This document shows, piece by piece, positions 1 through 48,971 of a stretch of 57,324 bases of DNA. This DNA is from a virus (lineage: Duplodnaviria; Heunggongvirae; Uroviricota; Caudoviricetes). A model generated the notes under the pieces. That model had not been told where the DNA came from, did not search any database, and saw only the letters and a program-made list of their open reading frames with translations. Each line of letters opens with the position of its first letter. Position 1 is the first letter of the stretch. The stretch is taken from IMG/VR virus record IMGVR_UViG_2778261526_000005, one strand, 5' to 3'. Both the position numbers and the translations under genes were made by a program.

Positions 1-1476
1 TCAAGGCTGCCCAGTCTTACCAGCATCAGCAGAAACAGCTTTGAGGATATAGGGTTCCAGAAGTCTGGCAACGGCTTCAAATACTGGCACCACAACGGAG
101 TTACCGAACTGCCGATATGACTGAGTATCTGAAACCGGAATACGGAATGGTTTCCCTCCAGGTTTTTCAAACCCCATAAGGCGTGCGCACTCTCGGGGAG
201 TCAGCCTGCGTGGTCGACGAGCCTGGTTACTCTCATTCATAAAGTCAGCCTCTCCCGTTGCCATATCCCAACCACGATCAATAAGAATTTCTGATCCGTC
301 TTTGTGATATCTGGCAGAAAGTGTGCGTGCAATGCTTTCCTTATTCTCAGGATTGACCAACCCAAAGCCAAAACCATTCCCCTTGGCTGCATGCTTTTTG
401 GCGTAGTTATAAAGGTACTCCCATAGTTTTGGCGTAAGTATATATTTACTGTCGACTACAGGCTCCAGCAATTCACCAAATGATGGGCGGTGTTCCGGAT
501 AAAAACGACTGATATCACGCAAGGTAAACCCCTTGTGAATATTCAGATCTCGTCTAAATCCGACCAGAACAATGCGTTCACGATGCTGAGGCAAAAAATG
601 CTTCCCATCGATAATCTTTGGATCGTTTTTTCCCATTTCTGCAGCATCGGCAACTTCGTAGCCCAGCTCGTCAAGGGTCTCCATAATGACTTTGAAAGTT
701 TTACCCTTATCATGGCTCTTCAGATTTTTGACATTTTCCAGCACAAAAATTGCCGGTTTTTTTGCTCGTATAATACGTGCCACGTCAAAAAAAAGTGTTC
801 CTTGTGCTTCACATTCAAAACCATGCGCACGACCAAGTGAGTTTTTCTTACTAACACCAGCAAGGCTAAATGGCTGGCACGGGAACCCCGCAAGAAGCAC
901 ATCATGATCCGGCACATGCTCATCAATATATGCATAAGCATCCGTTTCCAATACATCGGTTTTATCACTCAGCGTGACTTCCCGAATATCGAGATTGAAT
1001 TTATGCACCTGTTCATCGTTAAACCAGTTGGCCTTGTATGTACGCACAGCATCTTTATTCCATTCACTGGTAAAAACACACTGACCTCCAATGGCCTCAA
1101 AACCTTTCCGTATCCCTCCAATTCCAGCAAATAAGTCAATGAAGCGGAAAGCATATTCCGGATGGTTTGCAGGTGGTTCTGGTAGCATCTTACGCAGAAG
1201 AGACTCTTCTACTGAAGTCAACGATTTTGGTAAACACTTGCCATTAATCCAGCGGTTAATGGTTTCACGGCTCCACTCATTTTTTCCGACTTTTCTCAGT
1301 AATTCAGCCACATACTTCTGATCATAGATTTCCAGCACTTTCTCGATAAGCTTTTTATCATTTTCCTGTCGCAGCTTTTCTTCCGCCTCGGCTTCCTTCA
1401 GCAGATGCTGTGCCAACACTTCAAATTCAGACATAATTCCTCCAAGGGGTCTAATGGGTGAAACTTTATCACTCAT
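1..1476 (-). CDS. DNA-cytosine C5-methyltransferase, Dcm/M.EcoRII-like (full length, stop at 1-3)
   Basis: Motif [11 protein letters not shown], motif [22 protein letters not shown]; collinear over whole length with E. coli Dcm as recalled. No vsr downstream. Confidence 0.85.
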
Positions 1477-1739
1477 TCAACCCAGAAGGAAATGTTTTAT
1501 CTGGATATTTAAACAGTGACTACAACGTAATCTAGCACTGGTGATGCTTTGTTAGGCATAGAGAATCATTCTATATACGACTAATGACAGAAAAACAGCA
1601 GACAAGTAGTTTGTTCATAAATTAACGCATACAACGTGCCTGCGGTTTTTGAGACCGGTCCGATCATCAAACGAAACATAAAATTAGCTCACACTATGAG
1701 GAAAAGTATCTTTTTTACTATGTAAATTCAAATGATTAG

Positions 1740-2609
<870 letters not shown>

Positions 2610-2666
2610 GTCTTTAAGTGATAAGCATAAACCGCAGCACGATCTTGCATACGACGTGCTACGGTT

Positions 2667-3041
2667 TCATTTATCTCCGACCGGAAACTTCTTATACAGT
2701 GTCGATATACCAACATCATAGATGATCGCCACCTTCTGGCGAGGAACGCCTGATGCAATTAATCGTCCGGCCTGTGCCCATTGTTCTGGTGTAAGTTTGG
2801 GACGTCGTCCACCAATTCGTCCCTGTGCGCGAGCAGCTTCCAGGCCAGCTTTTGTTCGTTCAACAATCAGTTCTCGTTCCATTTCAGCCAGGGCACCCAT
2901 CACATGAAAGAAGAAGCGCCCCATAGGCGTACTCGTATCGATGCTATCCGTCAGGCTCCGGAAGTTAACACCTTTCTCCCGCAGTTCCTCCACTAACCCA
3001 ACAAGATGTCGCATGCTGCGACCGAGGCGGTCACGCTTTCA
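2667..3041 (-). pseudogene. Serine DNA invertase (Pin/Gin/Hin family) remnant; C-terminal part intact, premature TGA at the conserved Trp codon, N-terminus degraded
   Basis: Minus-strand reading GDTLVV*KRDRLGRSMRHLVGLVEELREKGVNFRSLTDSIDTSTPMGRFFFHVMGALAEMEREL matches Pin-type GDTLVVWKLDRLGRS...; TGA at 3039-3041; no intact catalytic N-terminus upstream. Confidence 0.7.
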
Positions 3042-3174
3042 GACCACCAGCGTATCGCCTTCAGATATGCATCCTTGCTAAACTTAGATCGCCGGTCACC
3101 AACTAAGCATGCAGTATGCGTTATGTTTTTTATTGCTCCCAGGGTAATGTGTCCACTAACTAAACAAGGAGATA

Positions 3175-3729
3175 GTGATGCTGCATACTATGAATTTCAC
3201 GGTGCCCGTAAATCAGTCCACCGTTAACGCTTTAATTAGCAATTGCCTTGGAGCTATCAATCAGGGGGCGACTGAGTTAAACATTTACATTTCCAGTCCG
3301 GGCGGTGACCTCGTTGCAGGTTTTACTGCTTATCACTTTCTAAAGGCCCTACCAATCCCAGTAAAGACCCATAACCTTAGCAATGTTGAATCAGTCGCTA
3401 ATATCATTTTTCTTGCAGGGTCTGAACGTAAGGCGAATCCTGGGAGTCGGTTCTTACTGCATCCTTTTCACTGGGGCTTGATGGGCCCAAGCGTGGATCA
3501 CTCACGCGTCAGTGAGTGGAGCGCGTGTCTCAATAATGACCTGGAGCGTTTTGTCGATATTTTGGAGAGTCAGATTGAGCTCAGTAAGAGCCGCAATGAG
3601 TGGAAGGAGGTTATCTCCGCCGCCACCATAGCCAATGCCTCCACAGCTCTGGATTGGGGGATGGTTCACGAGGTTGCCGCCGCCACTTACCCGCAGGCAC
3701 CCGGCACATACTGGTGGATTAACTGTTAA
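3175..3729 (+). CDS. ClpP-like (S14 family) serine peptidase homolog
   Basis: IYISSPGGDLVAGFTAYHFL resembles ClpP IYINSPGG; Ser in VESVAN and His in LLHPF at positions equivalent to the ClpP Ser/His; strong RBS AAGGAG upstream. Confidence 0.55.
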   Translation: MMLHTMNFTVPVNQSTVNALISNCLGAINQGATELNIYISSPGGDLVAGFTAYHFLKALPIPVKTHNLSNVESVANIIFLAGSERKANPGSRFLLHPFHWGLMGPSVDHSRVSEWSACLNNDLERFVDILESQIELSKSRNEWKEVISAATIANASTALDWGMVHEVAAATYPQAPGTYWWINC

Positions 3730-4323: not shown

Positions 4324-5225
4324 ACCCCATCAGCACCTTTCCCGCCCGTCATACTGGTTCCGCTATAACCTGCATCGTATGCACCACCTCCGCCTGAACC
4401 AAATGCCCTGCCTCTAACGCCACCGCCAGCGCCTGCACGTCCACCGCCTCCCCAGTACGATGCACCGCCTTCACCGCTGACGCTGATATTCCCGGACTGA
4501 CCGTCGCCTCCATCTCCACCAGTGATGCGGATATCGCCAATATTCGGTACGCCTCCGTTACCGCCGTTTGTGTTTGTGACTCCTACTTTTCCGCCGCCTT
4601 CACCACCAGGGGCTATTACCGATCCGAACGAGCTATCACCGCCCTTGAGGCCGTTCGTCGCACCAACGCCGCCGGCCCCACCTGCGCCGATAGTGACAGG
4701 ATAACTATTCTGTGTCGGGGTCAGTATGGTGATTACTGTCCCTCCGGCCCCACCGCCAGCACCGAAAAACGTTTCGTTACTGGATATAGCCTGGCAGCCA
4801 CCCCCTCCGCCACCGCCGCCCGTTATTGTGACCCTGATCCGTTTTGTTTCTGGTGATGGGGTATACGTACCTGATGACGCGAAAGCCCGGGTACTCAGCC
4901 GGCGTCCCACGTATCCGCTTGTATCTCCCAAACCAAGGTTTTGAAGAGCCGTTTTCACCGTGCCGTCCGATTTGATATCGCCAAACGGATTTTTGCGACT
5001 TAACAGCAGCGCACGAAGCGCGGTAAGCAGCTGGTCATGCCGCCCCTTCTCCAGGCTGGCACCGGATGCCTCCACCACGCTGCAGAGCTCCTCCTGCAAC
5101 ATGTCAAAGTAGTCATCATCCAGATCGGTGGCAGGCGTGCCGGTCTGGGGGTTACCACGGGTAAAACCGTTCTTACCCGCGCCGAACTTATCCTTCTGCG
5201 CGGTTTTCGTGTCTATACGATGCAT
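4299..5225 (-). CDS. Glycine-rich tail fibre protein
   Basis: Conserved phage N-terminus [34 protein letters not shown] followed by long Gly-rich repeats. Confidence 0.7.
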
Positions 5226-35521: not shown

Positions 35522-35740
35522 GTGGAGAAACATATGCTGAACCTCGATTGTGTTCCAATCTCAACTTATTGCAAAGAAACTGGCGAAACTCCTGAAGCAA
35601 TAAACAAACGTGTACAGCGCGGTGTTTGGCGTGAAGGTGTTCAGGTTTTAAAGGTTGAAGGCGTTAAGGAGAGGTGGATTGATCTTAGTGAGGTTGCAAA
35701 ATGGGCCAGACAAAACTGCTCAAACTACCGCGCGGCGTAA
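35522..35740 (+). CDS. xis: Excisionase-like protein
   Basis: 72 aa directly upstream of and overlapping int. Confidence 0.5.
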   Translation: MEKHMLNLDCVPISTYCKETGETPEAINKRVQRGVWREGVQVLKVEGVKERWIDLSEVAKWARQNCSNYRAA

Positions 35741-36897
35741 CAATCAGGAAACACCGCCAGGGCGAAACGATCAATATAACTTTCACCTACAAAGGAGTTA
35801 AATGTCGTGAGCCTCTTTCCAATCTGGAAGTAACACCAAAGAACATTAAATACGCCGAGCGCACACTCGGCGAAATTCATAATAAGATCGAAAGGGGAAC
35901 ATTCATTTATGCGGAATATTTTCCCCGTTCTGCTCGTTTGAAAATTTTTGGTAATGCTGCTGCAGGCAAAACGGTAAAAATGTACCTGGACGAATACCTT
36001 GAAATCTGCGAAACGAGAAAACTCTCACCCTCAACGATTGGTGGTTATAAAAAATGCCGTAGTGCGTTAGCCTCACTCCACATTTGCCCTGCAAGTGAAT
36101 TAACACCAGCAATCCTGAAAGCGTGGATTCAAAGCCAGAAAACGACCTTAAAAACAATTCGCAACCAGTTATCTTTCCTGCGGTCAGCACTTGATGAAGC
36201 CGTAACCGATGGGATACTTCAAATTAACCCCGTATCGTTGGTAACTGCTTCGCGCTACCAAAGTGATAAGTCAGAAGCAGAAAGCTGCTACGTGGTTGAT
36301 CCGCTATCACCAACAGAAGTTGATGCATTACTAGCAGCAGCCGGAAACAAACAATGGGAGAATCTGTTCCGGTTCGCTATACATACAGGCCTGCGTAGTT
36401 CTGAATTATGTGCCCTTAGATGGCGTGATATCGACTTTGTTGGAAAAACTGCCCATGTCCAGAGTGCAAGTGTTGTCGGTGTTATCAAAGGAACAAAGAC
36501 AAAGGCCGGTACTCGTAAAGTTGAACTGACAGAAGAGGCTATGTTGGCGCTGATAAATCAGAAGCCATTTACATTCATGAAGGATGCTACTGTCTTTGAA
36601 GACCCAAAGACCAATAAGCCTTGGGCAAGTGCTGATGCAATCAGGAAAAAAGCATGGGTGCCAACATTACGGAAAGCAGGTATTCGATACAGAAATCCAT
36701 ATCAAACTAGGCATACATTCGCCACCAGCCATATCAGCCGAGGAGCAAATCTGTTTTGGCTTGCAGCTCAAATGGGGCATAAAGGGCCGGAAATGCTTTT
36801 CAGGCATTATGGTTCGTATCTCGTAGACTATGATGGCAAGACAGCTTGTAAGGACCAAGTATCAAAAAATCCGGAGAACATGAAAATTGAGAAGTAA
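35701..36897 (+). CDS. int: Tyrosine integrase (lambda Int family)
   Basis: Catalytic region with RHTFAT and HYGSY (His/Arg/Tyr). Confidence 0.9.
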   Translation: MGQTKLLKLPRGVTIRKHRQGETINITFTYKGVKCREPLSNLEVTPKNIKYAERTLGEIHNKIERGTFIYAEYFPRSARLKIFGNAAAGKTVKMYLDEYLEICETRKLSPSTIGGYKKCRSALASLHICPASELTPAILKAWIQSQKTTLKTIRNQLSFLRSALDEAVTDGILQINPVSLVTASRYQSDKSEAESCYVVDPLSPTEVDALLAAAGNKQWENLFRFAIHTGLRSSELCALRWRDIDFVGKTAHVQSASVVGVIKGTKTKAGTRKVELTEEAMLALINQKPFTFMKDATVFEDPKTNKPWASADAIRKKAWVPTLRKAGIRYRNPYQTRHTFATSHISRGANLFWLAAQMGHKGPEMLFRHYGSYLVDYDGKTACKDQVSKNPENMKIEK

Positions 36898-37007
36898 AAC
36901 GCCCGATAGCACTAGCCCCCCTTCGCAAAACAGTAAAGCTTACAAGAATGTTAGCAGGATGATGAGGATAGTGTACAATGGTTTTAGTGTGCATTAAATG
37001 CAAAGAT

Positions 37008-37038
37008 TTGACGTTTTTTGTCAAATTTGTGCTATAAA
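37008..37038 (+). promoter_or_regulatory. Candidate promoter with palindrome upstream of the ATPase gene
   Basis: TTGACG-N19-TATAAA; palindrome tttgac-N7-gtcaaa. Confidence 0.3.
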
Positions 37039-37087
37039 ATCACTTTTAGTGGTTTTTAAGCTATGGGAAGTTAAAAGGGTATAAATT

Positions 37088-38353
37088 ATGTTGATTGAGT
37101 TTACAGTACAAAACTATAAATCTATTTCAGAGAAACAAACACTGAGTTTAGTTGCATCAAAACTTAACGATTTGCCTAATAATCTGTTCAGTATTGATGA
37201 ACCTAAATCTCTTGAATTGCTTAAAAGTGCTGTGATTTATGGCCCTAATGCTGCCGGAAAATCAAACATTATTAACGCTATTACAACTATGGCTGAACTT
37301 ATTGTCCGGTCTGCTACAGGTTATAAAAGTGGTGATAAACTTGATATCACGCCTTTTAGACTAGACTCAAAGAAGATTAATCAACCATCTGAATTTGAAA
37401 TTAACTTTATTTCCGAAGGCATCAGATACCAGTATGGTTTTTCTGCAACAGAAGATTTTATTCACGACGAATGGTTATTTGCATTCCCCAAAGGCAGACC
37501 ACAAAAATGGTTTTTACGTCTATGGGATGAAGAAAAACAAACCCATGAATGGGAGTTGGGGCCATCGTTGACAGGAGAAAAACAAACATGGTTGAAATCA
37601 ACCAGGCCTAATGCGCTCTTTCTTTCTACAGCGGTACAATTAAACAGTGTACAACTAAAACCTGTATACGATTGGTTTTATTACAAAGTTAAATTTACTG
37701 AATTAACAGGTTGGGATAGTGATTACAGTGCAAAGCAATGCTTAAATGATAAGAAAGATGAGATTCTCAATTTTTTAAAAGCTGCCGATGTAGGTATTGA
37801 TGACATTCATGTAACAAAAGAAAAATTCAATCCCAATGCTCTTCCTGATGATATGCCTGCAGCCATCAAGGAACTAGTGATTAAGAATATGCAAGGCAAG
37901 GAAGAATATGTCATTAAAACACTTCATAATAATGAGGATGGAGAGCCAATTCCATTCGATTTAAAAGATGAATCGCATGGAACTAGAAAAATCTTTAGTT
38001 TCGCGGGTCCCTTATCACATTCACTCGAGACAGGAAACATCCTGTTTATTGATGAATTAAATGATAACTTACACCCCAAATTAGTTGAGTTTATTGTAGG
38101 TTTATTTCACGATAAAAATATCAATAAGAATGGTGCCCAGTTAATCTTTACAACTCATGAGACGTCTATTTTAAATCAAGATGTTTTCAGACGAGATCAG
38201 ATTTGGTTTGTAGAAAAAGACAATTCAAAGCAAACAAATCTTTTCCCACTTACGGATTTTAGTCCAAGAAAAGGAAGGGAGAATTTAGAAGCTTCTTATC
38301 TTGACGGTAGATATGGGGCTTTACCACTCATTGGGAAATGGGAGAGATATTAA
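37088..38353 (+). CDS. AAA/ABC-type ATPase (AbiLi-like, OLD-family ATPase module)
   Basis: Walker A GPNAAGKSN; Walker B ILFIDELNDNLHP. Confidence 0.65.
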   Translation: MLIEFTVQNYKSISEKQTLSLVASKLNDLPNNLFSIDEPKSLELLKSAVIYGPNAAGKSNIINAITTMAELIVRSATGYKSGDKLDITPFRLDSKKINQPSEFEINFISEGIRYQYGFSATEDFIHDEWLFAFPKGRPQKWFLRLWDEEKQTHEWELGPSLTGEKQTWLKSTRPNALFLSTAVQLNSVQLKPVYDWFYYKVKFTELTGWDSDYSAKQCLNDKKDEILNFLKAADVGIDDIHVTKEKFNPNALPDDMPAAIKELVIKNMQGKEEYVIKTLHNNEDGEPIPFDLKDESHGTRKIFSFAGPLSHSLETGNILFIDELNDNLHPKLVEFIVGLFHDKNINKNGAQLIFTTHETSILNQDVFRRDQIWFVEKDNSKQTNLFPLTDFSPRKGRENLEASYLDGRYGALPLIGKWERY

Positions 38354-39039
38354 TGGGAAGCGAAGATCTGTTCAAAAAAAGAAAGGCTCGGCGTAATAAT
38401 GAATTCAAACGAGTTAGTAAAGCACGAGCTCAAATGAAGAAAATTCTTATCGTCTGTGAGGGAGAGAAGACTGAGCCCGCATATTTTACAGATTTTATAA
38501 AACATTGCCGTATAAGCACGGCAAGCATAGTTGAGATTTCTGGAGAGTGCGGCTCAAGCCCTATGAATGTGGTATCTTGGGCAAAAGAAAAATATAATAC
38601 GGAAAAAAAAAGGAGCGACCCTTATGATAAGGTTTATTGTGTCTTTGATAGAGACGCTCACCCTAACTATGATGAAGCTCTTAGCAGGATTAATTCCTTA
38701 AATCCAAAAGGGATTTTTGTTGCTATAACTTCCATACCATGTTTCGAGTACTGGCTGATACTACATTTTGGATACACCCGAAAATCATTTTCACCTCAGA
38801 AAGGCAAAAGTGAAGGCGCACAAATGCTAGCTGAGTTAAAAAAATACATGCCAGATTATGAGAAAAAGGCATCAGGTGTATTTAATAAATTGCAAGATCG
38901 GCTCGATACGGCATTAATCAATGCTAAAAGAGTCGAAGATGCCGCCAAAAAAGACGGTTCGATAAATCCTTCAACTAAAGTTGGCGCTTTGATTACAGAT
39001 CTAATTAACATTCGTGATGACTTTGAAAATGAGAAGTAA
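38338..39039 (+). CDS. RloB-like (TOPRIM-like) protein, AbiLii-like
   Basis: ILIVCEGEKTEPAYF matches the RloB motif as recalled; overlaps the ATPase gene. Confidence 0.6.
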   Translation: MGEILMGSEDLFKKRKARRNNEFKRVSKARAQMKKILIVCEGEKTEPAYFTDFIKHCRISTASIVEISGECGSSPMNVVSWAKEKYNTEKKRSDPYDKVYCVFDRDAHPNYDEALSRINSLNPKGIFVAITSIPCFEYWLILHFGYTRKSFSPQKGKSEGAQMLAELKKYMPDYEKKASGVFNKLQDRLDTALINAKRVEDAAKKDGSINPSTKVGALITDLINIRDDFENEK

Positions 39040-39165
39040 AAATAACATGTCATGATGTAGCGACGGCAGCATGTTTAAGTTCAAATGGCAAAGTGTACGC
39101 GAAGTATACGCGGCTCAAAAACAATAGAAAAAACGTATATTTTACAAAAGATTATATAAATTTTG

Positions 39166-39195
39166 ACGCGGGTTCAACTCCCGCCAGTTCCACCA
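39166..39195 (+). other. tmRNA (ssrA) 3'-end copy, about 30 nt: att core of P4-like element
   Basis: gacgcgggttcaactcccgccagttccacca matches the ssrA 3' end (T-arm, acceptor, CCA) with one mismatch; upstream is not ssrA-like. Confidence 0.7.
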
Positions 39196-39230
39196 AATAA
39201 TGATCCGGATACGTCCGGTGAAGTACAGAA

Positions 39231-39264
39231 AGCCCGCATGGCACAAGCCCTGCGGGCTTTTTTG
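39231..39264 (+). terminator. Terminator-like hairpin after ssrA fragment
   Basis: agcccgca...tgcgggct followed by tttttt. Confidence 0.4.
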
Positions 39265-39379
39265 TGTTTGTCGTTGTCCGAGAACATCCGGCTAAATCCG
39301 ATGATTATTGGTATACGTTTCGGTATACGGTAGGATGTATACCTAAAAGCGTATACCAATTCATGAAGGAGCGGCCACA

Positions 39380-40579
39380 GTGGCACGGACAACACGCCCC
39401 CTGACCAACACCGAAGTTCTGCGCGCGAAAGCGTTAGAGAAGGATCTAACGCTGCATGATGGCGATGGGCTTTTCCTGATAGTGAAAACTAGCGGCAAGA
39501 AACTCTGGCGCTTTCGCTATCAACGCCCAGCAACAAAACAGCGGACTATGATGGGACTTGGTGCTTTTCCTGCCCTTTCTCTTGCTGATGCCCGAGGGTT
39601 AAGAGCAGATTACCTTGCCCTATTAGCCAACGGAATCGACCCGCAAATTCAAGCTGAAGTTGCAGAGGAACAGCAGCAAATCGCTCTGGACAGTATTTTT
39701 TCGACGGTCGCCGCTAACTGGTTCCAGCTCAAAAGCAAAAGCGTTACCCATGATTACGCTAAAGATATATGGCGTTCACTGGAAAAAGACGTATTCCCCA
39801 CCATCGGGGAGATCCCTGTCCAGCAAATCAAAGCCCGAACACTGGTTGAAGCCCTTGAACCGATCAAAGCTCGTGGGGCGCTGGAGACGGTGCGCCGGTT
39901 GGTGCAGCGTGTTAACGAGATAATGATTTATGCCGTAAATACTGGTCTTATTGATGCCAATCCAGCATCAGGCATTGGAATGGCCTTTGAGAAGCCAAAA
40001 AAACAAAATATGCCTACGTTGCGCCCAGAAGAATTGCCTATGCTGATGCGTTCTCTCGTCATGTCAAATTTGTCTGTTCCGACTCGCTGCCTCATTGAGT
40101 GGCAACTCCTGACTCTAGTTCGTCCTTCTGAGGCTTCCGGTGCTAGGTGGGCTGAGCTCGATCTCGATGCAAAGCTCTGGACTATCCCAACTGAACGAAT
40201 GAAGGCTAAGCGGGAACACATAGTCCCTCTATCTCCTCAGGCATTAGAGATTCTTGATGTGATGAAGCTAATCAGTGCCCATCGTGAACATGTTTTCCCG
40301 AGTCGGAATGACCCAAAGCAACCAATGAATAGCCAGACGGCAAATGCTGCTTTAAAAAGGATTGGATTTGGTGGTAGATTGGTTGCTCATGGATTGCGTT
40401 CAATTGCCAGCACCGCATTAAATGAAGCGGGTTTTAATGCAGATGTAATTGAGGCTGCTCTTGCACATAGTGATAAAAATGAAGTGCGCAGAGCATATAA
40501 TCGTTCAACTTACCTTGAGCAACGAATAGGACTTATGAATTGGTGGGGCCAAAAAGTGTACGAGCGCAATCAATATTAG
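39380..40579 (+). CDS. Tyrosine integrase, P4/CP4-57 IntA-like (GTG start)
   Basis: Closely resembles E. coli IntA as recalled; AGGAG RBS. Confidence 0.9.
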   Translation: MARTTRPLTNTEVLRAKALEKDLTLHDGDGLFLIVKTSGKKLWRFRYQRPATKQRTMMGLGAFPALSLADARGLRADYLALLANGIDPQIQAEVAEEQQQIALDSIFSTVAANWFQLKSKSVTHDYAKDIWRSLEKDVFPTIGEIPVQQIKARTLVEALEPIKARGALETVRRLVQRVNEIMIYAVNTGLIDANPASGIGMAFEKPKKQNMPTLRPEELPMLMRSLVMSNLSVPTRCLIEWQLLTLVRPSEASGARWAELDLDAKLWTIPTERMKAKREHIVPLSPQALEILDVMKLISAHREHVFPSRNDPKQPMNSQTANAALKRIGFGGRLVAHGLRSIASTALNEAGFNADVIEAALAHSDKNEVRRAYNRSTYLEQRIGLMNWWGQKVYERNQY

Positions 40580-40608
40580 TTAACTTGTTATACATGGAGA
40601 TATAGTTC

Positions 40609-41067
40609 ATGGAGAATAATCTAGATAATTTATGTTATGAATTCTTTAGAGAGTTTTCACGTTATGAATATTGCCTTAAGGCATGTGGACTTCATCATAA
40701 AATAAAAGATGCTAAAGCGAACTGGGATGAGTATGCAAAGCAAGTTTCTGAAATCATAAATAACACAACTGATCCAGAGCTAATTGCTGCTATCACCTAC
40801 TTTAAAGAACACCCACCCAAAAAACAAATCATAGAAGATGACTCTTTAGTTTGGGATGATTCTTTACCACAAGAAAAAGATTTAGCAAAATTTCTTTTTT
40901 TGTTAATCCGCCGTGTAAGAAACAATCTTTTTCACGGAGGAAAATTTAACGGGAAATGGTTTGAACCTGAACGTAGTGAGGCGTTACTGCAACATGGCCT
41001 TGTTATTTTGAGGCATTGCGGCACAAGGCATAGTGAAGTAAGCAAAGCCTATTCTGGAATAGCCTGA
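40609..41067 (+). CDS. Hypothetical 152-aa protein in int-psu hotspot
   Basis: AT-rich ORF convergent with the helicase gene. Confidence 0.45.
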   Translation: MENNLDNLCYEFFREFSRYEYCLKACGLHHKIKDAKANWDEYAKQVSEIINNTTDPELIAAITYFKEHPPKKQIIEDDSLVWDDSLPQEKDLAKFLFLLIRRVRNNLFHGGKFNGKWFEPERSEALLQHGLVILRHCGTRHSEVSKAYSGIA

Positions 41068-41159
41068 GCGGTGTTATAAAAGAGAAGTTTTTGTTACTGG
41101 AAGAATGATAAAATTCAAAAACTTCTCTATTGATTGTTTAAAAAATCGTCTAAATAAGA

Positions 41160-43742
41160 CTATTGTACCCAAAAGTTACGAAATATATTATGTATTTCGT
41201 TTTGAACTAATTGTGGCAGTTCTTCCATGTCAACTTTATTGTCCTTAATCCAATTAATGCATTCTTCCTCATCTAAACTATCATTAGGAATAAGCTCTGA
41301 AATCATTACAGCAGCAGTTCTTGAAAAGCCAAGCCCTATTAGTGAAATCTGAGTTTTTAAACTTACACCCAGTTCTAAATAAACACCGATATCTTCAACA
41401 TCTTTTGCTAAGTCTGTGCGATCTATCGAAAGATAAAAGCTTTTTAATAAATCATTATAACATCCTAAAAGCCTTGGAGCTTGATAGCGAGCGATCTCTT
41501 CAACATCCTTCATAACCCCTCGTATTAAAGTCGCTTCTTTGAAAACAATATTTTTCTTTTTGTTATATCTTATTCTATCCGAGATCAATCTTGCTAGGGG
41601 ATAACCTTTCATCCACTTGGAAACTAACAAGGCCTGTACGTAAGCTCCTTTTGAATTATAACCTAGCTTCTTACTCAGAGTATCACTAATTCTAGAGAAT
41701 GCGGATACATATGAATCTAACGCATCATTACTACCAGGTTCAGAAAGCAGTAATCTCTCTACAGGTTTGTTTGTATCCCGCGAAAATCTATCCCAAAGGT
41801 TTTGCATTAAAAGCGGGCTTATACCAGGATGCCGCACAACCAATTCGTGTGGAAAAGTTAAAGAATCAAAAACATCAAATATTGCTTCATTTAAAACATC
41901 GATATTTTTTATATTGTACTTTTCCATGTAAGGATTATTATCCAAGCCATTATAAAAATAAAATGATGAACATAAATAACTAAATAGACTCTGGAGATTA
42001 GGATTCCGCTCAGACATACCAAAATGATGCTCTGAAAAAATATAGGAAACCAACTTATCCATGTCATGGGAAATAGCATCCGTGGCGCGAGTTATAAATA
42101 TATTTTTTTTGGTTTTTGGAGGCTCTCCATTCCAAATTTTTTCATTGTCGCTATCGATGCAGATGACATTACCTTGGAATTCTTTTCCCCAACGACCAGC
42201 TCTGCCAGCAAGATTCCAAAAATCCTCTTCTCGCATCGGGGTTGAATTACCCTTTTTAGGGCCTCTTATAAAAATATTTTTACAAGCCATGTTTACGCCC
42301 TCAACTAAAGTTGAGGTACAAATTAAAAAATCAATCTTACCTTTACTAAACAATCGTTCAATCTCGCCCTTTATTATTAAAGGCATGTTGCCATAATGAA
42401 AAGCGACTCTCTTTTTTAGAGTGCGATTTAATGCGAAATTTTTATGTATAATTGTCTCACTAAGCTCAACGAGAGCTAAAATTTCTTCATCCTCAGTCTC
42501 ATTTTCTATACTTGCAGATATTAGCTTGGAAGTAGATTCTGCTTCAGCGGCTCCATTTACGTAAACTACGTTACCAGAAGCCCCCTTACCTAAACAAAGA
42601 GCTACAAAAGGCAATCTTTTACTTTCAGGAGATGGTGCATTTTCTAAAGAAAAGTTTCCTAACTCGCGTTTTTCACCGTTTGCAAAATAATACATCAACC
42701 AATCTTTGGTCTTGCGTGGTTTTTGTTCTACCCATATTAAATTTTGATTAACTGTAACATAGTCACTTTTTATAGTTCTTTTGTTTTTTAATATTGGAGC
42801 ATCACTGAGCAATATTTCAGGATTTAAGGTGAAAGGACTTGCAAAGATAACTTTTGAATCAGGGTTATTTAGACAAGTCAGTTCAATTACATGTTGAAGA
42901 ATAACACCTCTTCCACCATCACCGATCTTGTGTGCTTCATCAACAACTAAGACGTCTATCTTTGGAATTTGTGAGAAATGATTGTAGAATAAATTTAATC
43001 TTTCCTGTGTAAATATGAAGACATTAGATTTTTCGCTCTGGTATACATTACTCAATGGTAGTGTCTGAATATTAACTATATTTGTTAAATTAGGATCCAA
43101 ACGTTTTTGCAACTCAGAATATACTTCTGAAATCAATGCCCTTGTTGGTACGATATAAATAACTAAGCAATTCTTATTTCTTTTTACAAACTGCTCCACC
43201 CAAGATTCCAGGATAAATGATTTTCCTACAGAGGTAGGAGCAGAGACACTAACCCATGAGTTTTCTTGTACCGCATCCCAAAACTCTGATTGAAACCTAT
43301 TAGCATAAATATGCTTATCAGCATCTATTTCAATTGTATATAGAATTTTTCTTTTAGTTAGTTCTAACTGAGCCTTTAAGGGTAATCTTTCTTCGAAATC
43401 AGGGTTAAGATACCCCCTATTTTCAGCAAGTTGTATTGCTGGATTATTAGATAATGAATCAAGAATTAATGCAGCACTATCTTTTCTTGCTTCACTTTTT
43501 TCATTCAATAAGCAATACTGTGCAATCCTTAAGGCTGCATCTTGGCATTTCTCATCACTTGAGAAAGCCAAAGAACTAGCACATGTTAAAAGATAGCCGA
43601 CATCCTCAGAACTAATCTGTGGGATTACATCTGATTTTAACTCTGGAAATTGATCTTTTATCGAGTTAGCGACTAATGCCTGATATTTTCTTAAGAATCC
43701 TTGATTCTTAATCAACCACCCAGATAAATCTCGCAACGACAT
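41160..43742 (-). CDS. Superfamily II helicase, Hachiman HamB-like
   Basis: Motif I SAPTSVGKSF, motif II VVDEAHKI, motif VI-like AGRAGRWG. Confidence 0.6.
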   Translation of the reverse strand: MSLRDLSGWLIKNQGFLRKYQALVANSIKDQFPELKSDVIPQISSEDVGYLLTCASSLAFSSDEKCQDAALRIAQYCLLNEKSEARKDSAALILDSLSNNPAIQLAENRGYLNPDFEERLPLKAQLELTKRKILYTIEIDADKHIYANRFQSEFWDAVQENSWVSVSAPTSVGKSFILESWVEQFVKRNKNCLVIYIVPTRALISEVYSELQKRLDPNLTNIVNIQTLPLSNVYQSEKSNVFIFTQERLNLFYNHFSQIPKIDVLVVDEAHKIGDGGRGVILQHVIELTCLNNPDSKVIFASPFTLNPEILLSDAPILKNKRTIKSDYVTVNQNLIWVEQKPRKTKDWLMYYFANGEKRELGNFSLENAPSPESKRLPFVALCLGKGASGNVVYVNGAAEAESTSKLISASIENETEDEEILALVELSETIIHKNFALNRTLKKRVAFHYGNMPLIIKGEIERLFSKGKIDFLICTSTLVEGVNMACKNIFIRGPKKGNSTPMREEDFWNLAGRAGRWGKEFQGNVICIDSDNEKIWNGEPPKTKKNIFITRATDAISHDMDKLVSYIFSEHHFGMSERNPNLQSLFSYLCSSFYFYNGLDNNPYMEKYNIKNIDVLNEAIFDVFDSLTFPHELVVRHPGISPLLMQNLWDRFSRDTNKPVERLLLSEPGSNDALDSYVSAFSRISDTLSKKLGYNSKGAYVQALLVSKWMKGYPLARLISDRIRYNKKKNIVFKEATLIRGVMKDVEEIARYQAPRLLGCYNDLLKSFYLSIDRTDLAKDVEDIGVYLELGVSLKTQISLIGLGFSRTAAVMISELIPNDSLDEEECINWIKDNKVDMEELPQLVQNEIHNIFRNFWVQ

Positions 43743-43743
43743 T

Positions 43744-44685
43744 TCAACTCTCCAATGCTTTAATTAAACTAGCCCTAAATGCTTTTACTGAAGGAAAAGG
43801 AAGAATAAAAACATGCATAGCAAAGCGATCAAGTTTTTTATTAACTATACCACCTTGCACACTAGTTGACCATTTCCCGACTTTAGTATTAATCAAAGCA
43901 ACTAGTTCACTGATATCAATTGAACTGGGCCCTTGTGGATAATCTTTAAGATCAAACCCAACTAAGCATATTCCTCTGTATTCCAATTTATTAAAATCCG
44001 GGCTATCAGGATCTAAGAATCTTTTCAACGCTTGTTCTAGTTCTATATCATCAACATTTAAGTGCGACTCCAGCAACTGCATATCACGTGTCTCAGCGCC
44101 TTCTATTCCCATAGAACTTTGAAGTAATGGAGCTATACTATCCATACACTCAGAAATACCTTTGCTCAGATTGGAATAGAGTTTAGACTCGCCCCAGTAT
44201 AAACATAATTTTTTATTATCTTTATCTACGCCTATATGTATTCCATCTGCACCATGGTAATGCATTTGAGAACTCGTTTTCAGGCTCATTTTGCAAATAA
44301 TTTGTGGAAATCTAAGGAATTGCTCTGCAAATAAAAAAAGAATAAATTCACCGCCTTCGCCACTATTTGCAAGCCTAGTAAATAATTTTTTTGCTTGATT
44401 TGCTAATTTTGTTATTTTCGCTGTTGATTGTGTTTCATTAAAATATTGCACTGCCTCATTGATTTTTTTCCTTGGAATAGCATAATCAACTACTTTATCG
44501 TTCAAGAATTGGATTAACGCGTCTACCCGAGGACGTCCATTGCCATCAAGATTAAGGCAATGAAAATGACAAGTTGCATTTGTATTTTCAATCAATGAAT
44601 TAACTTTAACTTCACTAAAATAACTATTTAGTGTTTGACCATCATCTCTAATCAGATTTTCAAGCGCGACATGCAGTGCATCCAT
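43744..44685 (-). CDS. HamA-like protein (possible PD-(D/E)xK nuclease)
   Basis: 313 aa immediately upstream of the helicase; D...ESK-type motif (GVDKD...WGESKL). Confidence 0.45.
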   Translation of the reverse strand: MDALHVALENLIRDDGQTLNSYFSEVKVNSLIENTNATCHFHCLNLDGNGRPRVDALIQFLNDKVVDYAIPRKKINEAVQYFNETQSTAKITKLANQAKKLFTRLANSGEGGEFILFLFAEQFLRFPQIICKMSLKTSSQMHYHGADGIHIGVDKDNKKLCLYWGESKLYSNLSKGISECMDSIAPLLQSSMGIEGAETRDMQLLESHLNVDDIELEQALKRFLDPDSPDFNKLEYRGICLVGFDLKDYPQGPSSIDISELVALINTKVGKWSTSVQGGIVNKKLDRFAMHVFILPFPSVKAFRASLIKALES

Positions 44686-45110
44686 GAGTAGGTCCTTGCA
44701 TATTTTATTTTCCTCATCATTTGCAATATATACTTATTTCAATAGCTTGCAACATTTTTACTCGACAATGATACTTACACCACACTCGCTGCTTAAAATC
44801 ATTGTTATCGCTTTAACGTGATAAACGATTCTTTCAATCAGGTACTCATTGAAAGTTAAAAGTTACTTTGACCATACACAGCGTGCGCTGCCCCGCCCGC
44901 CTGCCCGCTTCACTTAACAGACTGGTTTTCATGCACCCCGTAAATCGTCTCAGAAGCCACCACACAAGGGCTTTCGCGTCAAAAATGGCGCATGAGACTC
45001 ATGCGTTTTCATGCGCTATAGATATGCACTCATACGCCTTCAGGCCAGCCAGGGAAAAGGCGTAAAAAATCCCGGTACTGGACCGGGACTACGTGGGCGT
45101 ATTTTGCTAA

Positions 45111-45383
45111 TCAGACAGGAATTAGCTGACGGCTTGACAGCTTTGACGCGGAGCCATAGCGGTTGAGAGTTTGCTGTTGTTTTTCTGGCATTTGTTCTTT
45201 GTCTGATTCCTGTTCATTGCGCCAAGGCTTCATAATTATCGTATCCACGCTTTCCAGAGCGGTAAATGTGCAGGAACATTCCAGATTCTGGCACTGATAC
45301 CATGAGCGTTTAACCGATGGAGCTTCATAGGCGCTGGTTCTGGCGTGAGCGACCGTCCCACATTCAGGACACTTCAGGGCCAT
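45111..45383 (-). CDS. ogr: Ogr/Delta-family zinc-finger late activator
   Basis: CPECG...HARTS...YQCQNLECSCTF matches Ogr pattern. Confidence 0.7.
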   Translation of the reverse strand: MALKCPECGTVAHARTSAYEAPSVKRSWYQCQNLECSCTFTALESVDTIIMKPWRNEQESDKEQMPEKQQQTLNRYGSASKLSSRQLIPV

Positions 45384-45384
45384 A

Positions 45385-45939
45385 TCAGTACCCTCCTTTT
45401 TCATTAAGTCGGTTAAGGCGGGCCAGGAAAACTTTATGTTGTGCCGGGGTGAAACTGGTTGAAGCATCAGCGTACATTGATGCATCCACCGTTAATCCGG
45501 TTTCGTCGATAATGCTCTTGTATGCTGCTGAAATTACCGGAGTACGCACTTCCGTTTGTCGGGCTACAGCGGTTCGTAATATTTTCATTGCCGCCTCAAG
45601 CCCGTATGGAGCGCAAAGAAAAGGAGCCAGTGCGTCAGTGAGTGCATCACCATGCTCGCTCATGAAGTTTTCCGTTGCGCTTGTAACACAACTCTCCAGC
45701 ACAATCTGGTGAGCATAAAGACCATCCCGTGCAGCACAGTTAATCTGCCATTCGAGGACAGCAAGACGCTCACGAAGCTCCTCAAGCTGGCTGGCATATG
45801 CTGCCGGTTTTTCTTCAGTATTCAGCAGAGCCGCCAGACGAAGCTGGTAGGTACTTTGCGTATTACGTAGTGTCAGCCAGCTTTTTATCGCCGAGCGGTA
45901 ATCGTTGAGAGCTTCCTGAGTAATGGTTCCGGCATTCAT
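45385..45939 (-). CDS. psu: Polarity suppression protein Psu
   Basis: Recalled P4 Psu segments conserved (ALAP.L, FTPAQ). Confidence 0.7.
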   Translation of the reverse strand: MNAGTITQEALNDYRSAIKSWLTLRNTQSTYQLRLAALLNTEEKPAAYASQLEELRERLAVLEWQINCAARDGLYAHQIVLESCVTSATENFMSEHGDALTDALAPFLCAPYGLEAAMKILRTAVARQTEVRTPVISAAYKSIIDETGLTVDASMYADASTSFTPAQHKVFLARLNRLNEKGGY

Positions 45940-46721
45940 TTCTTCTCGCCCCCTTTAACCATGTCACGCTGTTTAAGCATCCGTGAACGCGCTGCAGGGC
46001 TGGGGGATTGTCTGGCATCCTGGATGGCTTTATCGTCCGCATAAATGCTGATCCCCGGCAGGGTAATATCATCCTTTGAAGATACGTTACAGGACAGTGC
46101 CGGAGTGGTGAGTTGCTCGCTGATAAATTGCTTCAGCACACTTTCGGGGTCGTTTACGGTATGAACTACACCGATAACAGCAGAAGCGCTTCGGCCCAGA
46201 GTCATTTTCAACAGTCCAAGGATCTGAATAAGTTTCTGGCCGTGTTCCTTCATAAACTCATTCCAGAGCCACACTGCATGAGTTTCAATCAGGCGATTAT
46301 GTTCGCTGATGTAGTGGTTTGCAGCATCCGCAGTTTTCCAGGGCAGGAATTCATTTTCTGCCACCTGAGCTGCCAGCAAATCTTCGAACTCATCCAGTGT
46401 TTCGCGTCCGAGGGCGATTTCTGCCCGCAGTTTTTTCATGCGTGGTGTCATATTTCCCTGATTCTCACGAAACAGGTTTCGCCATTCATCATTAAGCGCC
46501 TGCGTTTCCGTTTTTGTATCTTCCTGACGTTTACGGATAGTTTCAATCATTGCAGCAGCTTCAGTTTGTTTTCGCCGTTCTTCCTGCCAGACAGCTTTTG
46601 CTGCCTTAACTTTTTCCACCGCTTCGCGAATTTTCGGCGGGAGGGAGGATGTAATGTTTGCATCAGAGATCTGGTTAACAGTAGTCATGAATGCTCCGGT
46701 AGTGTTTTGTTGTCGTGTCAA
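45936..46721 (-). CDS. Putative Sid-like capsid size determination protein (start possibly 46688)
   Basis: Coiled-coil-rich protein first in the late operon. Confidence 0.4.
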   Translation of the reverse strand: MTRQQNTTGAFMTTVNQISDANITSSLPPKIREAVEKVKAAKAVWQEERRKQTEAAAMIETIRKRQEDTKTETQALNDEWRNLFRENQGNMTPRMKKLRAEIALGRETLDEFEDLLAAQVAENEFLPWKTADAANHYISEHNRLIETHAVWLWNEFMKEHGQKLIQILGLLKMTLGRSASAVIGVVHTVNDPESVLKQFISEQLTTPALSCNVSSKDDITLPGISIYADDKAIQDARQSPSPAARSRMLKQRDMVKGGEKK

Positions 46722-46760
46722 TTGTGCCGATGCCCATACAAGCGCACTACCGAGGGGGAT

Positions 46761-46778
46761 TGTGTCAGTGACAGAACA
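46761..46778. promoter_or_regulatory. TGT-N12-ACA element (Ogr/Delta-type activator site)
   Basis: tgt-gtcagtgacaga-aca read directly. Confidence 0.45.
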
Positions 46779-47601
46779 ATGACCTTGTTCTGGCTAGCCA
46801 GAGAAATGTGTCATGTCTGATCTTCAACTTTCCTTTAATAAATACTATTCACTACTGTTCACTTTGATAAAAAAATTGATAATACAGCTAGTTAAGAGGT
46901 GAAGGGTTGACAAGGCAGTATTCAGTGACTGTTCATGAGTGTTCATCGGAAGGTAGCGTGATTTATGATTTTTTTTCATCAAAAGTGAAATTTTTATTCC
47001 GAATGATTATTTCATTATTGTTCCTCACAACTATTCACCACTCTTCAGTAGTATTCAACAGATGATGAAATAGACGATTTTTCTTTGCCGGGAAATAACA
47101 TGATTCCCCCCTTTCCCTGGTGTTGCATTTCAATCTGATTTTTATAAAACTAGAACTGCTCGGTCTTTTATGAATTTATTTGGATATATTTTTAGGTTAA
47201 GAATGCGTGGTTATTGATTTTATGCGGTTCTAATTCTTCTGAGCTTGATGCAATTCATGAGTATATCCTGAAGTTAGGTTTGCAATGTAAAGCCATATGT
47301 AGAAATTGTGCATCCCTGCTGAATGGGTTGCGGTTTCAGTACCATTAAGTTCTATGACTTATGGGGTAGTAACCCCTGGATGAAAGTTAGTTCCTATTAA
47401 TGTCCCTGTATTTATAGTTCGCAGACATAATATCTATCATGCCATTTTATGTGGTTTGATATAGTTTTAAATTCCATTAAATCAATATGTGACGCTAAAT
47501 AAATAATGGGTGCGTAAGCGAGAAATATATACATAATAAGGAACTACCTGAATCCGGGGGGATTTATCCGGACTGATGAAGGAATTAAAGAGGGTAGATA
47601 A

Positions 47602-47862
47602 ATGCATGATATTTCTGTTTCTGCGCCAGCTCCGGCTGCGCCATTATTTCCTGTGCTGAACCAGCATGAGCGATTTTTACGTCTTCCCGAGGTGATGCAT
47701 TTATGCGGCTTGTCCCGCTCAACTATATACGACCTGATAAGCCGCGATGCTTTCCCGAAGCAGATCCCGCTTGGTGGTAAAAATGTTGCCTGGGCACAGT
47801 CAGAGGTAAGCGCATGGATGGCGGATCGTATAAGTGCCCGCGGACGGGGATGTGATGCATAA
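47602..47862 (+). CDS. alpA: AlpA-family HTH regulator
   Basis: [21 protein letters not shown] resembles AlpA. Confidence 0.6.
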
Positions 47863-48221
47863 TGATGCCTGAACGCATTAATCCCCATTTTTCTGGCTTG
47901 CATCCTGCAGTCATTTCCAGGTATAGTTTTTCCGCTGCCGCAAAATCGGCAGCCGGAATTGGCGTTCCGCGAAACTCAATGGCGACACCAGACGCGCCAA
48001 GCGTCTTTTTTTTCGTCGAAGCTCTGGCACACCCATTTTCCAGGCTGTGGTGTTTATGCGTACACCGTGGTTCTTTCGAGATAATGGCAGTCCGGGCGGG
48101 GCAGCCTTCGGGCTGGCCGGTATCCATTGAGGCCGGTTACGCCAACCCCGTTCGGGCTGCCACCAGTGAAATTGGCGTTTCCGGTGGTAGCAATAACCGC
48201 TACTCAATGGAGGCTGCCATC

Positions 48222-48413
48222 ATGGCTACAACCCTCACCCCGTTTTACCCGCAATATGTCTTTGTGCTTGCCGCAATCCGCCGTGCTGACACTCAACCCC
48301 GCATCTGTATGCTTCGCACCGTGGCCTGCGATGAGCGCTTTGCACGCCTTTCGCTGGTCCGTGATTATGTGCTCTCCCTTTCTGCACGGCTGCCTGCCGG
48401 GGAGGTGATGTGA
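48222..48413 (+). CDS. Hypothetical small protein
   Basis: GGAGG RBS; ATGA coupling to next gene. Confidence 0.3.
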
Positions 48414-48637
48414 TGAATCACGCCGCAATTTCTTATGACGATATTGTCCGCCTCAAGCATCTTCGTAACGTGGGGGAATTTGTCACCGGAATGGCTGTTC
48501 TTCAGGACTGCTATGAAAAACCTGCAGGTGCTCAATGTGAGCAACTGGTTTCCCTGATTTATCTGATGACAGAACAGCTTGATGGCGTGGTACAGCGTTG
48601 CCAGGATGACCTGATGAACAAGGAGGTGGTGCAATGA
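48413..48637 (+). CDS. Hypothetical small protein
   Basis: GGAGG RBS; coupled chain of small ORFs. Confidence 0.4.
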
Positions 48638-48957
48638 AATCACGCACTCTTCCCCTCTCACTTCGGCTGGCGTTATATCGCCGCGCGGTTGCCTGCGCCT
48701 GGCTGAGTATCTGCCATCAGCACAACCGCCACCTGCAGCTCACTCTGGATGAAATTGAAACCGCCATTGCCCGTGAGCTTGAAGGTTTTTATCTGCGACA
48801 GCACGGGCAAACAAAAGGCATGGAAATCGCCTGCGCCCTGCTTTCAGACCTGATGGAATCCGGTCCTCTAATGTCCTGCCCCGCACTCTCCCAGCTCGGA
48901 ATAGCCGTAATGGATGAGTTATGCGTCCGTCACATTATAAAGCCGGTTTTACACTGA
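48634..48957 (+). CDS. Hypothetical protein upstream of primase
   Basis: ATGA-coupled ORF. Confidence 0.4.
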
Positions 48958-48971
48958 GGGAGAACTGCATC

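Follow-up and report, generated by a model that had tools for sequence, protein, structure and literature searches.

The DNA analyzed here is a 57,324-nt stretch of an Escherichia coli chromosome (hereafter, the window) that includes a prophage, and the question raised by this locus is what two genes lodged at one end of the prophage, between the integrase and a copy of the 3' end of ssrA, do for the prophage and its host. A previous, sequence-only reading had proposed that these genes encode an AbiL-like ABC-type ATPase and an RloB-like protein, equivalent to a split module of the OLD family. AbiL and RloAB belong to a defense family that combines an ABC ATPase with a Toprim protein and for which the trigger, the substrate and the assembly are unsolved in the literature (PMC13064643, PMC10802264). 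The observations described below make it likely, with a probability of roughly 0.8, that the prophage carries the pair as an anti-phage module of two genes, of the AbiL/RloAB kind. Systems of this kind are already catalogued, as AbiL in the predictors and by family as RloA/RloB, and the exact proteins are present in RefSeq, where the first is WP_044527605.1 ("AAA family ATPase") and the second is WP_032211342.1 ("RloB family protein"). In this respect, little of the analysis is new: a standard run of PADLOC would identify the pair as AbiL.

Genomic location of the gene pair

The region 36900-39400 is 99.8% identical to the chromosome of E. coli strain EC1722-1 (NZ_CP081192.1), and the identity between this chromosome and the first 4.5 kb of the window is 100%. 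The prophage is a mosaic in which the head is of the HK97 type, the tail is contractile and sheathed, and the Q, cI/Cro and holin genes are lambda-like. The label "lambdoid", previously applied to the integrase, is therefore a loose one: the lambda-like features belong to the genes for regulation and lysis.

The integrase forms the left border of a slot of about 2.3 kb that holds the ATPase and RloB genes and extends to the ssrA 3'-end copy (Table 1), which is where the pair had been placed from the start. The att copy, limited to the terminal ~30-45 nt of ssrA, was detected by a pattern search and by alignment; neither ARAGORN nor Rfam at gathering thresholds identified a tmRNA in the window. 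The number of matches to the 28-nt pattern expected by chance is 0, and the copy aligns with the true ssrA of the near-identical strain with a single C>T change; the intact ssrA of that strain lies ~1.5 kb beyond the left edge of the window. In genomes that lack the prophage, the match to the window begins at 39151-39159, and in genomes with a different downstream island, it ends at 39195. These boundaries locate the prophage/att junction, so that the pair lies just inside the integrase-side end of the prophage.

Table 1. Coordinates of the gene pair and the flanking features in the window
Feature	Position	Strand	Remarks
Prophage tyrosine integrase	35701..36897	+	Pfam Arm-DNA-bind_2 5e-23, Phage_integrase 5e-16
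AT-rich upstream region of the module	36898..37087	+	Inverted repeat and promoter-like hexamers
RloA/AbiLi-type ABC ATPase, 421 aa	37088..38353	+	
RloB/AbiLii-type protein, 228 aa, putative Toprim-like metal-dependent nuclease	38353..39039	+	
ssrA 3'-end copy, prophage/att junction	39151..39195	+	Exact pattern match 39168-39195 (28 nt)
P4-like element integrase	39380..40579		Separate element downstream of the att copy

The slot between the integrase and the att copy is a variable cargo site, which goes beyond the earlier description of it as a typical cargo position. Similarity to sibling prophages ends inside the 3' end of the integrase gene, at ~36812-36852 (1112-1152 of the query 35701-36950), and the siblings carry different cargo: a 578-aa AAA ATPase together with a Dam-type methylase, a single hypothetical protein of 260 aa, or a three-gene set that includes a STAS-like protein. 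The integrase is common to ~396 complete E. coli genomes, and about 15 of these, among 5,426 complete genomes altogether, hold the pair. The pair is dispensable cargo, given that it is missing from most of the sibling prophages. Its GC content is 36.1% compared to 52.4% for the prophage and, together with the differing cargo of the siblings, this foreign composition makes the pair look acquired. Copies of both proteins with 100% identity are also present in a large protein collection, and strains from China and the USA that are not related to each other share the same protein accessions.

The neighborhood of the pair is rich in defense genes. Beyond the att copy, the prophage gives way to a P4-like element, which carries HamB and HamA (Hachiman) along with C4 and isrK RNAs. 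At the other end of the prophage, the near-identical strain carries a type II restriction-modification (R-M) system, which consists of an m5C methyltransferase and a type II endonuclease; within the window, the methyltransferase gene and the pair are ~37 kb apart. The ssrA locus, where a prophage that bears cargo at each of its ends is in tandem with a Hachiman-bearing P4-like satellite, is an example of how defense cargo gets arranged.

Organization of the two genes and the upstream region

The overlap of the two genes noted originally was confirmed, with a refinement of its extent. The longest open reading frame (ORF) for the second gene, 38338..39039 (233 aa), is on the same strand as the ATPase gene and overlaps it by 16 nt. 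Homology favors the ATG at 38353, which is also the PGAP choice in three near-identical genomes: the residues M1 and G2 that follow from this start are invariant among 36 RloB homologs, and a Shine-Dalgarno motif, GGGAGAG, is located 8 nt upstream. With this start, the overlap is 1 nt and the two genes are joined by a TAATG stop-start, which suggests translational coupling. The first possible start codon of the ATPase gene is 80 nt downstream of position 37008, and the interval 37008-39039 includes 5' non-coding DNA.

The AT-rich region upstream of the ATPase gene is a candidate for the module's own promoter and operator. It contains an AT-rich inverted repeat (36989-37012/37020-37043) with the core TTTGACG-N5-TGTCAAA; the predicted DNA fold of this repeat has a z-score of -2.6, with 4 of 200 shuffled sequences folding equally well. 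A P2-like phage of Klebsiella has the identical 17-nt core upstream of its homologous pair, and much stronger palindromes occupy the same relative place in the copies from Ewingella (z -6.6) and Neisseria (z -10.2); no such palindrome was found upstream of the homologous copy embedded in an R-M locus. It is conceivable that the conserved palindrome accompanies the module as an operator for autoregulation. Promoter-like hexamers (36951-36979) score 9/12, but the promoter scan of the upstream region yielded fewer sigma-70-like sites than shuffled sequences and cannot support a promoter claim. The expression signals of the pair are consensus-level guesses.

The ATPase

The first protein matches the Pfam AAA_21 family (PF13304) with an E-value of 1.3e-38 (134 bits against a gathering cut-off of 27) and, less strongly, AAA_15 (9e-09). 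The PADLOC models that it matches include AbiLi (PDLC02335, 4.2e-101, profile positions 49-290 of 326) and AriA (PDLC02980, 2e-37). The identification of the protein as an ABC-type ATPase with Walker A and B motifs is borne out by the sequence, which contains Walker A (GPNAAGKS, residues 52-59), a signature-like motif (ESHGT, 295-299), Walker B with the catalytic Glu (ILFIDE, 318-323) and an H-loop (TTHE, 355-358). Every one of these motifs is invariant among 25 homologs, down to 55% identity, and the length of the protein, 421 aa, falls within the range of the homologs (419-425 aa). Neither protein of the pair has a dedicated NCBIfam model, and in PHROGs both fall in families of unknown function.

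The AF2 model of the ATPase (pLDDT 79.6) clearly assigns the predicted fold to the Rad50/SMC-head ABC class. When the model was compared to the PDB using Foldseek, the best matches were PtuA, Rad50 and SMC heads (E-values from 4e-11 to 1e-8); PtuA of Septu and type I-A retrons came first, followed by Rad50, with Thermus OLD and retron-Eco8 lower. A PDB sequence search with the ATPase produced no useful relative, the sole match being FtsE (E-value 0.0097), and the weak matches to NCBIfam RecF and Pfam SMC_N cover the Walker A region only. A profile of the ATPase aligns with P2 Old over the signature, Walker B and the H-loop with an E-value of 4.5e-5.

RloB and the Toprim question

The sequence-only reading hinged on the second protein matching RloB or Toprim models, and the RloB part of this expectation was borne out in full. 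The protein matches Pfam RloB (PF13707) over the entire model (positions 1-195 of 195; E-value 1.1e-39, 137 bits against a cut-off of 31.5), as do all 36 homologs, and also matches PADLOC AbiLii (PDLC02337, 3.2e-29, profile positions 11-95 of 170), so that both AbiL models recognize the pair. The CEGEKTE-type motif that had been spotted in this protein spans residues 35-41 and is followed by DRDAH (99-103) and PCFEYWLILH (129-138); the residues E36, D99, D101, H103, E132 and H138 are invariant among the 36 homologs, down to 43% identity. At 228 aa, the protein is of the same size as its homologs (221-229 aa).

In the predicted structure of RloB (pLDDT 85.8, pTM 0.80), strands 29-35, 58-63, 93-99 and 122-128 alternate with helices, and the C-terminal part is helical. 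E36 directly follows strand 1 of this four-strand alpha/beta core, and D99 and D101 are at the end of strand 3; as modeled, this placement of the Glu...DxD residues is the Toprim arrangement. Comparisons at the level of sequence profiles and whole folds gave no Toprim relative. With 36 homologs as queries, Pfam at E-values up to 10 reported RloB only and no family of the Toprim clan; the profile of these homologs retrieved only designed helical proteins from the PDB sequences; an hhalign comparison with P2 Old gave a probability of 0.3% and no similarity to the Toprim region of Old; a PDB sequence search with the protein itself returned no meaningful match; and Foldseek found nothing in the PDB at an E-value of 0.001 or lower. 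The query from which the OLD Toprim profile was to be built, the C-terminal 207 aa of P2 Old, collected five fragments only.

The description of the pair as a split OLD-family module is, accordingly, supported only indirectly. In its favor are the Glu...DxD core in the model, the match of the ATPase to P2 Old and the published grouping of such systems (PMC11464382, PMC10440598, PMC13064643); against it, comparisons of the RloB profile with Pfam, the PDB sequences and P2 Old yielded no Toprim relative.

The two proteins share a further feature, namely, a terminal tail that is highly conserved and yet has a pLDDT below 50 in the respective model, at the C-terminus in the ATPase and at the N-terminus, where it is basic (MGSxDLFxKRK), in RloB. 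These tails could form a latch or contact between sensor and effector.

Conservation of the gene pair

The RloB homologs with 46-52% identity are always preceded by a gene for an AAA_21 protein of ~420 aa, and across homologs with 46-68% identity, the pairing of ATPase and RloB is retained in three other settings. In the first of these, the pair (with a homolog at 46% identity) is located between hsdS and hsdR in type I R-M operons of Alloalcanivorax and metagenomes. In the second, it lies between gpA and the portal gene of an Ewingella prophage that is P2-like; a deposited P2-like phage of Klebsiella carries a homologous pair in the same slot, which in P2 is the site of old/tin. In the third, it is a stand-alone pair in a Neisseria chromosome. 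The sequence identities of the ATPase and RloB fall in step over shared contigs (86/77, 84/75, 64/51, 61/50 and 56/48%), and distant versions of the pair reside on very small plasmids of 3.9-5.25 kb. The conservation of the pairing in unrelated contexts fits a predicted mobile two-gene defense module.

Relationship to known defense systems

The name Rlo stands for R-linked ORFs and refers to the place of these genes in type I R-M loci of Campylobacter jejuni. The pair in the window shares with C. jejuni RloA/RloB the order of the two genes, with the AAA_21-type ATPase encoded first and the RloB-family protein second, and UniRef names an ATPase homolog with 58% identity "RloA protein". The pair differs in location: the site that gave RloAB its name is between the hsd genes of a type I R-M locus, whereas the pair in the window is carried as prophage cargo beside the integrase, although the homolog with 46% identity does occupy the hsd site. 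RloAB itself has no demonstrated function (PMC10802264).

The same bicistronic layout, an ABC ATPase followed by an RloB/TOPRIM protein, is found in AbiL (AbiLi and AbiLii) of Lactococcus lactis plasmid pND861, a system that has been grouped among the ABC ATPase plus TOPRIM defense systems (PMC11464382, PMC10440598). In the window, the PADLOC models for AbiLi and AbiLii match adjacent, coupled genes, which is how the predictor defines AbiL. The prototype comes from a Gram-positive plasmid, and its kinship to the E. coli pair is remote: a tblastn search with RloB against 72,556 plasmids detected no Lactococcus record at an E-value of 1e-3 or lower, so that it is the PADLOC models that tie the pair directly to the prototype. 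Among the relatives considered here, AbiL alone has a demonstrated abortive-infection phenotype, the anti-phage activity of this distant lactococcal system having been shown by Deng et al. 1999 (cited in PMC13064643); in the latter review, from 2026, the stage at which lactococcal AbiL aborts infection is listed as after transcription and the mechanism is listed as unknown.

PARIS (AriA and AriB) is likewise split into an ABC ATPase (AAA_15/21) and a Toprim nuclease, is often carried by phages and satellites and works in a toxin-antitoxin-like manner as sensor and effector. The proteins are different: AriA is ~55 kDa compared to the 421 aa of the ATPase described here, and the effector of PARIS is DUF4435/AriB rather than RloB. 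Membership in PARIS was rejected, given that Pfam detected no DUF4435 even at E-values up to 10 and PADLOC reported no AriB match; no AriA structure is among the best 50 Foldseek matches of the ATPase model. The authors of the PARIS study consider AbiL and RloAB structurally distinct from PARIS (PMC10802264), and hence the PARIS-style sequestration model may not transfer to the pair.

P2 Old is a single polypeptide, whereas the module analyzed here consists of two ORFs with a stop codon between them, which excludes class 1 OLD (P2 Old type); none of the 120 RloB homologs listed is longer than 249 aa. Septu/retron PtuA proteins are the solved structures closest to the ATPase model (9n69, 9e91, 8sux and 8eea; E-values from 4e-11 to 4e-9), and Septu PtuAB also is a two-gene combination of an ATPase and a nuclease, but the nuclease is the HNH protein PtuB, not RloB. 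Septu was rejected because the partner of the ATPase has no HNH match and the NCBIfam PtuA model gives 25 bits against a cut-off of 500. Gabija consists of GajA, a fused ATPase-Toprim protein, and GajB, a UvrD-like helicase. It was rejected because the module includes no helicase gene, the next features being the att copy and the integrase of the P4-like element. In related systems that combine an ABC ATPase with a Toprim protein, the ATPase acts as a sensor that controls a nuclease effector; among these effectors, P2 Old and PARIS AriB cleave tRNA (PMC11464382, PMC12409363, bioRxiv 10.64898/2026.07.10.737580).

Proposed function and alternatives

For the pair in the E. coli clade, we infer a defense function, a split between sensor and effector, a trigger and a substrate, as follows. 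The product of the upstream gene, the Rad50/SMC-like ABC ATPase, probably would serve as the infection sensor and regulator, and the product of the downstream gene, RloB with its predicted Toprim-type acidic site (Glu36, Asp99 and Asp101), probably would be a metal-dependent nuclease. If the analogy to PARIS, P2 Old and Gabija applies, the ATPase would keep the nuclease inactive in the lysogen until some cue from a superinfecting phage frees or activates the nuclease, which then would cut host and phage nucleic acid (tRNA, other RNA or DNA) and so abort the infection. Such abortion would protect the lysogen population along with the resident prophage, a form of superinfection exclusion.

It is also conceivable, although unlikely, that the pair is mainly a toxin-antitoxin (TA)-style addiction module, in which RloB is the toxin and the ATPase is the antitoxin, and the prophage is stabilized by post-segregational killing. 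There is precedent for such a division of roles in the NetFlax pairs of AAA antitoxins and TOPRIM_OLD toxins that were validated in toxicity-neutralization assays (PMC10440598); furthermore, addiction would make sense for the small plasmids that carry the distant versions, and the upstream palindromes are reminiscent of autoregulated TA operators. However, Pfam detects no recognizable DNA-binding domain for autoregulation in either protein, the module recurs in defense hotspots (the P2 old/tin slot and type I R-M operons), and the TA activity would be compatible with defense, as PARIS is both (PMC13064643).

In another, quite unlikely alternative, the pair is an R-M accessory or guard that responds to the anti-restriction proteins of phages and not to infection generally, much like PARIS, which senses Ocr. 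For RloAB, such a role has been suggested by Deep et al. (PMC10802264), and the homolog embedded between hsdS and hsdR as well as the type II R-M system at the other end of the prophage in the near-identical strain are consistent with it, but the pair is far from the methyltransferase gene and outside any R-M operon, and many homologs have no R-M system close by, being encoded in phages or as stand-alone pairs. Extended to all RloAB-type modules, including the prophage copy, the proposal is that the ATPase detects anti-restriction DNA mimics and unleashes RloB as a second line of defense. This generalization is still more doubtful; if true, it would explain both the first discovery of these genes between hsdS and hsdR and the presence of R-M at the other end of the prophage.

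A role in prophage DNA metabolism, with a Rad50/RecF-like ATPase and a nuclease that function in recombination or repair rather than immunity, is very improbable. The best structural neighbors of the ATPase model do include Rad50, SMC and RecF heads, and the weak RecF and SMC_N matches at Walker A point in the same direction. Against such a role, there is no long coiled-coil and no Mre11-like partner, the pair is absent from the great majority of the siblings and is dispensable, and it shows both a foreign GC content and a slot behavior like that of known defense genes. That the pair is a decaying, non-functional remnant is hardly credible given that both ORFs are full length compared to their homologs, every catalytic residue is intact and identical accessions recur in unrelated strains.

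Implications

The pair is a compact, intact copy of AbiL/RloAB that is native to E. coli and comes with its own upstream region. As such, it would be a convenient model for the study of the AbiL/RloAB family with E. coli phage collections.

Genomic context of the ATPase-RloB module

Comparison of the window with L011, L012 and L013, sibling E. coli prophages that share its integrase, identified the int-distal end of this prophage family as a variable cargo slot (approximately 36812-39150) whose left breakpoint falls within the last ~15-28 codons of int. The alternatives that emerged from this comparison are a 578-aa AAA ATPase together with a DNA adenine methylase, a single 260-aa hypothetical protein, and a reverse-strand set of three genes, one of which encodes a STAS-like protein. 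Cargo is also present at the prophage end opposite the ATPase-RloB pair (1..3729). In the near-identical strain EC1722-1 (NZ_CP081192.1), which is identical in this region, a type II restriction endonuclease gene followed by ssrA is located just past the position of the window's left edge; therefore, defence genes are found at both ends of the prophage.

The P4-like satellite beyond the att copy carries a Hachiman system in its cargo hotspot; in other strains, this slot is occupied by an nSTAND NTPase or by an HNH and AAA pair. The adjacent 152-aa ORF matched PHROG 19013, a family of unknown function, over its full length (E = 1e-93), with no match in Pfam or NCBIfam and no convincing match in PADLOC; the ORF may have an accessory role in the Hachiman cargo.

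Features of the window and of related loci
Feature	Coordinates	Strand	Remarks
DNA cytosine methyltransferase	1..1476	-	cargo, far prophage end
LEM-3-like GIY-YIG protein	1785..2609	+	cargo, far prophage end
ClpP-like protease subunit	3175..3729	+	cargo, far prophage end
AT-rich inverted repeats	36989-37043		window
AT-rich inverted repeats	4626-4686		L008, Ewingella prophage
AT-rich inverted repeats	4680-4730		L010, Neisseria chromosome
AT-rich inverted repeats	~4600-4640		L015, Klebsiella phage
ATPase C-terminal tail	38264..38350		residues ~393-421
RloB N-terminal tail	38353..38412		residues 1-20
P4-like satellite	39380-51305		directly beyond att copy; P4-type integrase, Hachiman, C4 antisense RNA, isrK
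152-aa ORF	40609..41067	+	between P4-like integrase and hamB
HamB (Hachiman)	41160..43742	-	PADLOC HamB, E = 0
HamA (Hachiman)	43744..44685	-	adjoins hamB; annotated DUF1837/HamA
isrK RNA	47934..48011		in satellite
C4 antisense RNA	48080..48167		in satellite

Conserved features of the module in other replicons

In P2-like phages, namely the Ewingella prophage (L008/L009) and Klebsiella phage ST13-OXA48phi12.1 (L015), the pair is located between the gpA replication gene and the portal gene, the site of old and tin in P2. On very small, mostly mobilizable plasmids from E. coli, Salmonella and Klebsiella, a large part of the sequence is occupied by a distant pair of RloB (about 32-34% identity to that of the window) and an ATP-binding protein; NZ_AP027671.1 (3.9 kb) and NZ_CP024043.1 (5.25 kb) are examples.

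The C-terminal tail of the ATPase (invariant K395, R397, E398, Y404, G407-G410 and P413) and the N-terminal tail of RloB (MGSxDLFxKRK) are strongly conserved, yet both are predicted to be disordered in monomer models (pLDDT <50), and hence are candidates for the sensor-effector interface.

In several contexts, the ATPase gene is preceded by AT-rich inverted repeats, with DNA-fold z-scores of -2.6 in the window, -6.6 in Ewingella and -10.2 in Neisseria, where the 25-nt arms are perfect. The repeat core, TTTGACGTTTTTTGTCA, is the same in the E. coli and Klebsiella phage copies although the coding DNA is only ~68% identical. The upstream repeat may act as an operator or form a 5' hairpin, and would travel with the module.
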